In this document: one piece after another, positions 6,240 through 21,686 of the stretch | How positions within the stretch are numbered: position 1 is the first letter of the stretch | Layout of the letters: every line of letters starts with the position of its first letter | Assembly (NCBI GenBank): GCA_951406725.2 | Contig: OX597833.1 | Coordinates: 15,252,001 to 15,316,000, forward strand | Length of the DNA: 64,000 nt | Source of the DNA: Octopus vulgaris | Lineage: Eukaryota | Direction: 5' to 3' | Translations under genes and position numbers: made by a program | The notes under the pieces: generated by a model | Databases searched by the model: none | Told to the model about the DNA's origin: nothing | Seen by the model: the letters and a program-made list of their open reading frames with translations, nothing else

Positions 6240-6470
6240 TATTTCTTTACTACCCACAAGGGGCTAAACACATAGGGGACAAACAGGGACAGACAAACGG
6301 ATTAAGTCGATTATATCGACCCCAGTGCATAACTGGTACTTAATTTATCGACCCCGAAAGGATGAAAGGCAAAGTCGACCTTAGCGGATTTTGAACTCAG
6401 AACGTAACGGCAGACGAAATACGGCTACGCATTTCGTCCGGCGTGCTAACGATTCTGCCAGTCCGCCGCC
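6240..6470 (-). mobile_element. SINE family A monomer
   Basis: tRNA-like head with A-box-like TGGCAGAATCGTTAG and B box GAGTTCAAATCC; TSD atcaccatatatata. Confidence 0.85.
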
Positions 6471-6889
6471 TTCAATCACCATATATATATACACACTTTA
6501 CTCCACACAAGGACACATATGGAGACACGGATCCACCCATATAAAGATGCACATCCATACATACAAACATGGTACATAGTTGCATAGCACACACACACAC
6601 ACACAGACATGCACACACAAGGAGACAGAGGTGCATGCATATACAAACACATGCTCACACACACACACACATAGAAAATACACAAACACAGACATGCAAG
6701 CACATAAATACGCAGGATACATACATACGGATGCACACACATACATACATATATACATATGCATACACACACACATATATATATATATACACATGCAAAC
6801 ACAGACATACATACGTGGAAATTTTACCGGTGAGTGTGTTAAATTATAAGGCACAAAAAGAAAATGACTCTCCCCAGATATAACAGTAT

Positions 6890-7916: not shown

Positions 7917-8147
7917 TATTTCTTTACTACCCACAAGGAGCTAAACACAGAGAAGACAAACAAGGACAAACAAACGAATTAAGTCGATTACACCGACCCC
8001 AGTGCATAACTTGTACTTAATTTATCGACCCCGAAAGGATGAAATCCAAAGTCGACCTCGGCTGAATTTGAACTCGGAACGTAACGACAAACGAAATACG
8101 ACTACGCATTTCGCCCGGCGTGCTAACGATCCTGCCGGCTCGCCGCC
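7917..8147 (-). mobile_element. SINE family A monomer
   Basis: Same consensus; degenerate TSD tgttgtcactattata / tgttgttattattata. Confidence 0.85.
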
Positions 8148-8584
8148 TTTGTTGTTATTATTATAGTCTGATTTCAATTAAATCTACAATACACCCCCAC
8201 ACACACCCCACACATATATACAGAGAAAGCAAGAGAAAGGCGGACAGTGAGGGAGAGAGAAAGAGAGATCATTTTTAATTAGTGTATTTCTAAATAGTCG
8301 CCTCCAGCAACAGAGCATATTTCTCTTCTCTTTTAAGAGACAGCCAAAACATAGCGAACGCATTTACAAGTTAGAAGTATTTCATACTCAATATATCTTC
8401 AGAAGAAAGTTTCTGTCAGCAGCTGAAATATGATTATGAACAGAGCCATTATCCAACGATTGAACACCTGTAACACTAAGTTCACAATCTGCTGATAATA
8501 TATGAGAAATATAGAATATATAGTAACAAATACCCGAGTTTAGTATCGTCCGAGAAATCTTCGCTGGCTTGTTACACCAATACC

Positions 8585-10100
8585 TATTTTTTACTACCCA
8601 CAAGGGGCTAAACACAGAGGGGACAAACAAGGACAGACATAGGTATTAAGTCGATTATATCGACCCCATGCGTAACTGGTACTTATTTAATCGACCTCGA
8701 AAGGATGAAAGGCAATGTCGACCTCAGCGGAATTTGAACTCGGAACGTAACGGCAGACGAAATACCTATTTCTTTATTACCCACAAGGGGCTAAACATAG
8801 AGGGGACAAACAAGGACAGACAAACGGATTAAGTCGATTACATCGACCCCAGTGCGTAACTGGTACTTATTTAATCGACCTCGAAAGGATGAAAGGCAAT
8901 GTCGACCTCGGCGGAATTTGAACTCGGAACGTAACGGCAGACGAAATACCTATTTCTTTATTACCCACAAGGGGCTAAACACAGAGGGGACAAACAAGGA
9001 CAGATATAGGTATTAAGTCGATTATATCGGCCCCAGTGCGTAACTGGTACTTATTTAATCGACCTCGAAAGGATGAAAGGCAATGTCGACCTCGGCGGAA
9101 TTTGAACTCGGAACGTAACGGCAGACGAAATACCTATTTCTTTATTACCCACAAGGGGCTAAACACAGAGGGGACAAACAAGGACAGACATAGGTATTCA
9201 GTCGATTACGTCGACCCCAGTGCGTAACTGGTACTTAATTTATCGACCCCGAAAGGATGAAAGGCAATGTCGACCTCGGCGGAATTTGAACTCGGAACGT
9301 AACGGCAGACGAAATACCTATTTCTTTATTACCCACAAGGGGCTAAACACAGAGAGGACAAACAAGGACAGACAAACGGATTAAGTCGATTATATCGACC
9401 CCAGTGCGTAACTGGTACTTATTTAATCGACCTCGAAAGGATGAAAGGCAGTGTCGACCTCAGCGGAATTTGAACTCGGAACGTAACGGCAGACGAAATA
9501 CCTATTTCTTTATTACCCACAAGGGGCTAAACACAGAGAGGACAAACAAGGACAGACAAACGGATTAAGTCGATTATATCGACCCCAGTGCGTAACTGGT
9601 ACTTATTTAATCGACCTCGAAAGGATGAAAGGCAGTGTCGACCTCAGCGGAATTTGAACTCGGAACGTAACGGCAGACGAAATACCTATTTCTTTATTAC
9701 CCACAAGGGCTAAACATAGAGGGGACAAACAAGGACAGACATAGGTATTCAGTCGATTACGTCGACCCCAGTGCGTAACTGGTACTTAATTTATCGACCC
9801 CGAAAGGATGAAAGGCAGTGTCGACCTCGGCGGAATTTGAACTCACAACGTAACGGCAGACGAAATACCTATTTCTTTATTACCCACAAGGGGCTAAACA
9901 CAGAGGGGACAAACAAGGACAGACATAGGTATTCAGTCGATTACGTCGACCTCAGTGCGTAACTGGTACTTAATTTATCGACCCCGAAAGGATGAAAGGC
10001 AAAGTCGACCTCGGCGGAATTCGAACTCATAACGTAACGGCAGACGAAATATCGCAAAGCATTTCGCCCGGCGTGCTAACGTTCCTGCCGGCTCGCCGCC
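8585..10100 (-). mobile_element. SINE family A octamer: one 5' head plus eight ~183-bp body units
   Basis: Units start near 8581, 8763, 8947, 9131, 9315, 9499, 9683 and 9866; the head lies at ~10050-10100; one TSD ttg(t/c)tacaccaatacc flanks the whole array. Confidence 0.9.
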
Positions 10101-10789
10101 TTTTGCTACACCAATACCAACAACTGTAGGAACAACCTAGGCATTGAAGCACTAGCTTAAGTTCACTTTTTAAGTGGAACAAGTTCAGCATTTAAAGTAG
10201 CAGACACACATTTAACGTGTTTTATTTTGGGAGAAATATTTAAGGCAAACAGGCATAACACATTTACAATTAGAAATAGAAACTGAATCAGCATTAGAAA
10301 TATAAAAAAAATAGGACGTGTTATCTGTGTAATATGTAGCCATTTTAACCAAAATTTTATAAGTCCCTTCTGTAACTTATTTTGGTTATTTTACTTGATG
10401 AACGAACATAAGTATTCAAATATTTATATCCTCATCTGTGTGTTGTGCCTTCGTGTCGTTTAGAATTCCAATTAACATTTTTCTCAAAAGTATATAATGG
10501 AATACCGATGTACGAAAGTGGTATAATGAAAATACTAATACTAATACTAATACAGCGGTTAAAGAAAAATAGGTATTGGATTCAACGCTGTTCCATTGAT
10601 TCCAGCTCGAAATAATATATAGGACAATAACTTCATTATTACAATATCTCTACTCGCGGGGTTTTCTGAAAATAGTGCAAAATGAAATCTAATATACACA
10701 CACATGCATACACACATATATATACACATAATACACATCTATATAGATACTTATAATATATAGATACACACATACACACACACAAACAC

Positions 10790-15899: not shown

Positions 15900-18134
<2,235 letters not shown>

Positions 18135-18135
<1 letters not shown>

Positions 18136-18472
18136 TCAACGGAACAACCTGCTCGTGAAATTAACGTGCAAGTGGCTGAGCACTCCACAGACACGTGATA
18201 CCCCTTAACGTAGTTCTCGGGCAGATTCCGCGTGACACACAGTGTGACAAGGCTGGTTCTTTGAAATACAAGTACAACAGAAACAGGAAGAAAGAGTGAG
18301 AGAAAGTAGTGGTGAAAGAATACAGCAGGGATCGCCGCCACCGACTGCCGTAGCCTCGTGGAGTTTTAGGGGTTTTATCTCAATAAACCCTCACAACGCC
18401 CAGACTGGAAATCGAAACTGAGATCCCACGACCGCGAGTCGCTGCCCTAACCACTGGGCCATTGAAACTCCA
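18135..18472 (-). mobile_element. SINE family C (tRNA-derived)
   Basis: Head on the minus strand (tggcccagtggttagggcagcg...gtttcgatttcc) matches 23141-23531 and 24543-24914. Confidence 0.85.
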
Positions 18473-21355: not shown

Positions 21356-21372
21356 AATAATTATTATATTAA

Positions 21373-21686
21373 GGCGGCGAGCTGGCAGAAACTTTAGCAC
21401 ACCGGGCAAAATGCATAGCCGTATTTCGTCTGCCGTTACGTTCTAAGTTCAAATTCAGCCGAAGTCGACTTTGCCTTTCATCCTTTCGGGGTCGATTAAA
21501 TAAGTACCAGGTACGCACTGGGGTCGATATAATTGGCTTACTCCGTTTGTCTGTCCTAGTTTGTCGTCTCTGTGTTTAGCCCCTTGTGGGTAGTAAAGAA
21601 ATAGGTATTTCGTCTGTCTTTACGTTGTGAGTTCAAATTCCGCCGAGGTTGCTTTTGCCTTTCATCGTTTCGGGGTCGGTAAATAA
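21373..21686 (+). mobile_element. SINE family A, one full unit plus a partial second unit
   Basis: Junction gaaatag|gtatttc at ~21598-21611. Confidence 0.85.

Follow-up and report, generated by a model that had tools for sequence, protein, structure and literature searches.

How does a single SINE come to have one head and eight bodies? The locus that raises this question lies in a stretch of 64,000 nt from Octopus vulgaris, hereafter the window. The initial annotation had described one head, eight units of ~183 bp, and one TSD of ~16 bp. Both the sequence and TRF agree with that description. The array is on the minus strand (10101-8585) and comprises a single tRNA-like head and eight bodies, each of 182-184 bp (TRF period 184, 8.0 copies, 95% matches). 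A 16-bp TSD, with one mismatch between its copies, encloses the whole array. Note that our numbering follows the first unit of this array: window position 10101 is nt 1 and the body is nt 49-232. The component parts are listed below.

10103..10118, minus strand: TSD, 5' copy (16 bp), starting GGTATT, a 6-nt match to the unit start
10054..10101, minus strand: tRNA-like head (nt 1-48 of the reference), containing an A-box-like motif and the hairpin's 5' arm, from sequence and fold
9870..10053, minus strand: unit 1 (nt 49-232), with a B-box-like motif, body, and tail A
8767..9869, minus strand: units 2-7, every start being GGTATTTCG; a mosaic of, apparently, at least three founder types, with units 3 and 4 identical
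9687-9869, 9503-9686, 9319-9502, 9135-9318, minus strand: bodies of units 2, 3, 4, and 5
8951-9134, 8767-8950, minus strand: bodies of units 6 and 7
8585..8766, minus strand: unit 8, with tail A at its end, directly adjoining the TSD
8569..8584, minus strand: TSD, 3' copy, one mismatch

The junction between units is best set between GAAATA and GGTATTTC, one base 5' of the position first given. Folding confirmed the proposed head hairpin and, as also proposed, the units have a B-box-like motif and no A-box-like motif. We presume, from general knowledge of tRNAs, that these labels are appropriate. Motifs and paired ends of the head can be seen in both sequence and fold; neither ARAGORN nor Rfam reports a tRNA. 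In Rfam, the unit matched no known ribozyme or RNA family, with two chance matches only (E=7.2). A 462-nt fold, of the head and units, was not more stable than shuffled sequences (z=0.30).

Multimers with a fixed junction are a property of the family

Other copies of the junction are present in the window. A junction 24-mer, allowing up to 3 mismatches, matched 14 times, compared with 0 in 100 shuffles. All of the additional junction sites reported earlier were recovered (21595, 30348, 39866/40050, 50870, and 62759/62965), and the dimer at 43564-44001 extends that list. The elements are as follows.

39697..40296, minus strand: trimer, same junction; own 14-bp TSD, beginning GGTA
62590..63205, minus strand: older trimer, same junction
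50664..51062, plus strand: dimer, with the C220 tail variant in the last unit; TSD begins AGAA
30175..30580, minus strand: head, tail-A unit, junction, and a unit with a different tail B; single 17-bp TSD
21372..21684, plus strand: head, unit, junction, and partial second unit; no TSD identified
43564..44001, plus strand: dimer whose junction is a variant (GGTA followed by a head fragment that has a deletion); has a TSD of its own
6240..6471, minus strand: monomer of the SINE family; TSD begins TATA
7917-8148, 37061-37285, 56436-56654: further monomers of the family

In the 30348 case there are two restarts: the junction is followed by 14 nt, and then by head nt 40. One head subfamily, found at many loci (including the window elements at 21372 and 63205), often has G44 together with C49. 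These bases would lengthen the hairpin by one pair, and the GGTAT site is lost. The window also contains AT-rich and AAAG-rich simple-repeat tracts of 1.5-2.2 kb (15900-18136, 52366-53888, and 60286-62017), which are ordinary for this genome. A 101-bp duplication (49667-49867) and a degenerate 38-bp minisatellite (54181-54373) bear no relation to the SINE.

Across the 2.8-Gb genome, the exact junction had 20,700 matches and a reversed-pattern control had 0. We annotated 394 elements by BLAST chaining, of which 204 are within contiguous stretches, amounting to 1,064,000 bp, not picked for junctions. Note that 664 kb of this sequence surrounds the SINE-rich focal window, and the sample leans to SINE-rich regions. 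In the contiguous stretches, 82 of 117 junctions connect a tail to nt 49, while 5 connect a tail to nt 16. The other 30 are broken alignments, head-to-tail pairs, and deletions. Hence, the claim that fixed-junction multimers characterise the family, made originally from one window, holds across 1.064 Mb.

Counts of headed elements that end in tail A, or have a junction, fall from 31 monomers to 23, 9, 3, and 1 with two, three, four, and five units; the 8-mer is additional. Multimers are thus about half of this sample (37/68). Junction-bearing elements usually start within nt 1-20 (97/116 in the whole sample), and their 3' ends are tail A in 56 instances, tail B in 39, and elsewhere in 21. As expected of a tRNA-derived SINE, the elements are short, dispersed, and high-copy, with variable TSDs (51 TSDs, of 10-27 bp). 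We also observed CpG decay of GGTATTTCG to GGTATTTTG, giving a T4 run 7 nt past the tail (5 versus 56, contiguous sample). This run would stop a Pol III transcript and leave a ready GGUAUUU priming end.

The junction results from insertion of the SINE into the heads of other copies

When a SINE inserts in the head of another copy, between C and GGTATTTCG, its 3' end forms the junction. A genome search for GGTATTTCG, then 11-17 nt, then a head, returned 245 two-headed matches. The same pattern, at two other internal control sites, returned 14 and 29; the first control 9-mer is 2 times commoner in the sample than the GGTATTTCG 9-mer (225 versus 106). We inspected the first 30 of the 245 matches, and 22 are nested insertions. 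In 18 of these, from 17 loci, the outer head is upstream and the host body resumes past the inner tail. The other 4 are located at an existing junction, and two of the four are near-copies of each other. The remaining eight of the 30 do not qualify as clean nesting: one, with an outer head, lacks tail A, four show no resumption after the tail, and two are unrelated. One of the 30 is an insertion in non-SINE DNA, with a 14-bp TSD beginning GGTATTTCG. At six loci (L155, L156, L159, L163, L176, and L179) both TSD copies carry identical variant bases. Since TSD copies share variants, and the hosts span several subfamilies, these six insertions are separate events. At L168/L169, the head and TSD of a nested insertion, a segment of 65 bp, are tandemly duplicated before a tetramer.

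There is a weaker insertion site at head nt 16 (AGAAACG). Here, the search gave 45 matches, and 6 of 15 inspected rows resume at nt 16 after the tail. The resulting second junction, tail to nt 16, matches the AGA target class described below.

The restart of each unit had first been located at the anticodon position of the head. A preferred insertion site in the head accounts for it, rather than RNA cleavage at the anticodon. We rejected cleavage because headless elements starting at nt 49-55 are few, and most keep remnants of an upstream unit or head.

The extent of self-targeting may be modest. A 5-nt preference alone gives a rough expectation of ~175 nested copies, before corrections that would cut this number 2-4-fold; these cover loss of the pattern (the 9-mer survives in about half of heads) and later-arisen sites. 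Hence, self-targeting is perhaps just a few-fold above the 5-nt bias.

Target choice tracks the variant carried by the element

We scored TSDs for 83 headed tail-A elements and found one in 51, with none in 32. Immediately after GAAATA, the 51 TSDs start with GGT (15), TAT (12), AGA (7), or TGT (3), and 14 fall in no class. The start is GGTA in 13 of 51, against a background of 0.0026 (0.3%). Among monomers, 10 of 28 TSDs start GGT. The match between TSD and next unit spans 3-7 nt, and the focal array (GGTATT) belongs to the GGT class. Each of the 26 flush cases has C or T immediately before the TSD; A is excluded by construction here, and G is not.

The class of target tracks the variant. When the last unit has C220, targets are AGA in 5 cases and GGT in 1; with T220, they are AGA in 2 and GGT in 14 (Fisher p=0.004). 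Similarly, elements with the AATACCTAT variant have GGT targets in 5 of 7 cases, compared with 10 of 44 without (p=0.018). Note that these links involve small counts, and that units are not independent. An independent count of tail ends agrees with the target classes, again with small numbers. Since target class tracks the variant of the element, the 3' flank of the RNA likely biases target choice towards its own head. We infer that the RNA runs past the tail, into the flank of the source copy, and pairs with the nicked target. For L1, the available text of one study indicates that priming needs ~4 matching bases (PMC3649969). Note that L1 pairs with poly(A), whereas the pairing sequence of the octopus SINE would be the 3' flank of the source copy. 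Unlike that of L1, such a preference would be heritable, and could direct the element to its own sequence.

The AATACCTAT variant involves three bases of the body (window 9850-9940, in units 1-2, and other loci) and is the reverse complement of ATAGGTATT at the junction. It closes a long stem across the junction (-19.7 versus -10.8 kcal/mol). Its occurrence in 7 of 34 scorable monomers suggests that those derive from junction-bearing templates.

A LINE family has a 3' end resembling tail A

The window contains the 3' end of a candidate mobiliser.

58099..58148, plus strand: LINE 3' end (endonuclease and RT family), 80% like SINE tail A over 50 nt

A 3' tail in common with a LINE is a trait of tRNA-derived SINEs and, for tail A, this 50-nt similarity provides it. 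A 30-mer from the LINE family has 947 exact genome matches. One copy encodes RT and endonuclease domains, and the nearest solved relative is LINE-1 ORF2. On the basis of the similar end, this family is a candidate mobiliser of the SINE. We found no LINE partner for tail B in the sampled sequence. In the window (57960-58150), and at L091-L126, there are 5'-truncated L1-like LINE copies ending in (TATC)n. The copy at L122 is near-complete but broken, with endonuclease and RT frames present.

Tail-B elements show some arrangements of their own. At L008 (1277-2268), L042, and L047 they occur in head-to-tail runs of 3-4, apparently by insertion at the AT-rich 3' ends of one another. At L248 (1479-2135), a separate 101-bp tandem array consists of the 3' part of a tail-B element plus flank; it directly follows a six-unit multimer.

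Short multimers combine units of different origin and move together

Units within dimers differ by 0.109 (n=21), and those within trimers by 0.086-0.095 (n=11). The distance between loci is 0.105. Since units within a multimer are as distant as units at separate loci, short multimers are not recent local duplications. We therefore rejected the idea that dimers arise when a monomer is duplicated locally; their units are as far apart as random pairs, and no homology is present that would fix the junction. Short multimers are mobile as whole units, within one TSD. Of the routes suggested initially, this supports a multimeric source gene.

The origin of the units can be followed at nt 62. We picked loci by the exact tail-B motif; of the headed multimers there, 8 of 10 begin with an A-type unit and 8 of 10 end with a B-type one. 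Single B units are B-type in 9 of 10 scorable cases. An A-type first unit with a B-type last unit is in keeping with an A head that inserted in a B copy and was read through. Read-through into the host body would be possible because the majority sequence has no T4 stop; the T4 run is absent from the majority unit and present in 27% of individual units. In 7 of 20 informative arrays, an internal unit is unlike both end units at a multi-base variant. Hence, some insertions had at least three founders, or gained a unit at a junction.

Long arrays carry the signatures of growth in place

In arrays of at least four units, adjacent internal units differ by just 0.036 (median 0.017, 35 pairs), compared with 0.105 between loci, and have nested variants in common. 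Long arrays thus display the trait of SINE-derived satellites (sSat), namely tandem units, from part of a SINE, that are homogenised. Where the end units differ, the fraction of internal sites matching the last unit is 0.64, 0.63, 0.45, and 0.26, from 5' to 3' (18 tail-A arrays, with sites not independent). Rare alleles follow the same 5'-to-3' order (p=0.005 across all arrays and 0.045 among tail-A arrays alone). This gradient, together with nested variants, is the pattern given by unequal exchange.

At the focal array, A99 occurs in units 2-8 and C73 in units 3-8. Elsewhere, these bases are found at 7 of 193 and 11 of 182 loci respectively. A 41-mer containing both has 6 genome matches: 3 in the focal array and 3 in unrelated single units. 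The same genome search, with this 41-mer haplotype, revealed no sister array of the 8-mer. At least three founders are indicated because AATACCTAT is in both end units and absent from units 3, 4, and 7. Hence, the 8-mer likely began as at least three founder units and then expanded locally by unequal exchange. Alternatively, the expansion may have occurred inside a source gene that left a single offspring. The eight-unit length is thus probably due, for the most part, to local expansion, with at least three founder units, rather than a monomer, as the starting point.

A proposed route and its alternatives

We consider it probable that a tRNA-type SINE inserts at the same site in the heads of other copies, that the resulting read-through multimer RNAs are retrotransposed as units, and that local unequal exchange then extends an array to an 8-mer. 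In the first step, tail-A elements, which end sharply at GAAATA, insert after a pyrimidine, often at GGTA(T). Head nt 49, where C precedes GGTATTTCG, is such a site, and insertion there creates the junction; both the nested insertions and the target bias are direct observations. Second, the Pol III promoter of the inner head would read via the tail into the host body, generating RNAs of the form head-(body)n. Third, an L1-like RT could start at any tail, yielding n-mers with one head and one TSD. These products, and the heterogeneity of their units, are observed, while the route to them is conjectural. Fourth, RNA just past the tail would pair, over ~5 nt, with the nicked target. Sources with a junction would thus prefer GGTAT sites, including that in their own head, and the junction would re-seed itself. 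Fifth, arrays of at least four units would grow in place, as the signatures of local expansion suggest. Read-through RNA, RNA-guided priming, and the identity of the mobilising LINE are the parts we infer.

A broader proposal is plausible, though we would stop short of calling it probable. Here, target preference would be carried and inherited in the read-through RNA, whose bases past the tail would prime the LINE enzyme at matching sites. As one of these flanks is the head of the element itself, the family would keep inserting into itself and regenerate multimeric sources. Two self-pointing junctions (nt 49 and nt 16) would operate in parallel in two tail variants, and hybrids of tail A and tail B would ride two LINE machineries.

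The best of the alternatives, which we nonetheless consider unlikely, traces nearly all junctions to a single old dimeric master gene or to a few of them. The endonuclease alone would then set the target, nesting would be incidental, and long arrays would come from unequal exchange only. Consistent with this, C220 is present in 19 of 39 last units and 4 of 72 first units, a skew indicating that particular dimers were amplified. Since two-headed copies are few, compared with 20,700 junctions, most junctions could indeed stem from few old sources. Moreover, nested copies are rare, near the order of magnitude expected from a 5-nt preference, and the pyrimidine before the TSD suggests an enzyme preference. 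However, an enzyme-only preference does not predict that target class tracks the variant. Nested cases also span many host subfamilies, there are several kinds of last unit (A, B1, and B2), and the odd internal units of 7 in 20 arrays are not explicable as chimeras of the end units.

Most units might instead be added in place. SINE RNA would prime at genomic nt 49, with the cDNA joining via head homology, to add one body and no second head. Insertions at heads and existing junctions do occur, 2 of 10 tail-B multimers begin with a unit that is B-type at nt 62, and internal units from a third founder would be accounted for. Even so, we find this distinctly improbable. The 8 of 10 tail-B multimers that begin A-type are as predicted by read-through from an inserted A head. 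First and last units diverge equally from the majority (0.038 versus 0.039), and so hosts do not look older than the added units. In addition, the site does not seem frequent enough for about half of headed elements to have been converted.

In template jumping, also raised initially, RT would reach the 5' end of one RNA, cut at nt 49, and continue on the 3' end of another, chaining units at each insertion. This would explain why units of short multimers are as unlike as random copies, yet it presupposes RNA processing at nt 49. Few headless elements begin at that position, most of them with upstream remnants, and no known ribozyme or RNA family was matched in Rfam. Since nested insertions suffice to explain the junction, template jumping is not needed, and we regard it as very improbable.

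Finally, rolling-circle reverse transcription of a 184-nt circular RNA, the other initial suggestion, is hardly credible, and a single-unit circle is largely refuted. The fixed junction, the exact period, and the pairing of body across the junction in AATACCTAT units (energies above) are in keeping with a circle. Against it, among 32 headed tail-A dimers and trimers, just 4 are uniform across the seven diagnostic sites, some of which are mutable; first and last unit disagree at the two-base 126/129 variant in 11 of 28, near the 50% of random pairs; heads and fixed 3' ends are kept, with starts in nt 1-20 as above and ends at a tail in 95 of 116 junction-bearing elements; arrays often terminate in the different tail B; and variants in common are nested and polarised, not star-like.

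Comparison with known SINE arrays

Retrozymes are tandem retroelements that bear ribozymes and have circular RNAs. Like them, the octopus element has tandem units of ~180 nt. Unlike them, its units are heterogeneous (4 of 32 concordant, as above), the head is Pol III-type, the tail is LINE-like, and no self-cleaving ribozyme was matched in Rfam.

The closest anatomy is in another mollusc. In the blood clam Scapharca broughtonii, TSD1-(SINE)n-TSD1 arrays of 4-15 units have a first unit with a full head and head-truncated repeats (PMC11481361). The octopus arrays likewise have one full head, head-truncated repeats, and a single TSD pair. However, according to the available part of that account, first and internal clam units are 3'-truncated, whereas octopus internal units keep a complete tail A, and the last unit has tail A or the different tail B. 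Tandem or palindromic copies are ~3% of Scapharca SINEs, compared with 37 of 68 headed octopus elements that end in tail A or have a junction in our sample. In the same part of the account, unequal recombination between TSDs is proposed, rather than self-insertion (PMC11481361).

Squamate sSat, as far as the available text describes them, are also alike in having tandem sub-SINE units, a longer terminal unit, one unit boundary common to many loci, and long arrays that are more uniform (PMC10702118). They are read there as nascent satellites, with a subtelomeric location, and true dimeric SINEs were looked for in vain by the authors (PMC10702118). In contrast, short octopus multimers are dispersed and flanked by TSDs, and their unit boundary can be shown to be an insertion site.

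Head-to-tail SINE multimers are described for jerboa Dip (to 8 units), B2, and Ves, and dimeric SINEs include Alu (PMC8466645). Insertion of one SINE into another, and possible retrotransposition of dimers, are features in common with the octopus family. The multimers in the available text of that source are full-length units, head to tail, whereas octopus insertion is within the head (nt 49 or nt 16) and gives one head with many bodies. The same text states that the origin of dimers, by insertion or from dimeric templates, is not known (PMC8466645).

We also considered MetaSINE membership and found no support for it; six short body motifs were absent from the PMC4824008 supplement, and the bivalve Meta sequences examined there look unlike the body by eye. 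The accessible portions of PMC4758252, PMC9795677, and PMC4824008 did not identify the family. In the available text of an octopus repeat annotation, the word 'multimer' is absent and 'tandem' is used just for software (PMC13282606). The literature within our reach, which excludes repeat databases and key octopus papers, gave no account of this octopus multimer, nor any that derives such arrays from self-insertion at one fixed position in the head; supplements beyond it may contain one. Hence, array anatomy of this kind is known already, from the clam, and we did not find the self-seeding route in print.

Implications

What the focal locus displays is a family-wide property, and not a circular-RNA system: it is SINE multimerisation with unusually complete intermediates. 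All of these are kept in numbers, as monomers, two-headed nested insertions, one-headed dimers, and locally expanded arrays. There are practical consequences. For annotation, octopus SINE multimers skew SINE copy counts and ages, and junction reads from the family would look like circular RNA. If the RNA flank transmits target preference, a few RNA bases would let a non-autonomous element direct a LINE enzyme. Because the intermediates are all preserved, the path from SINE to satellite can be counted and tested in this family.
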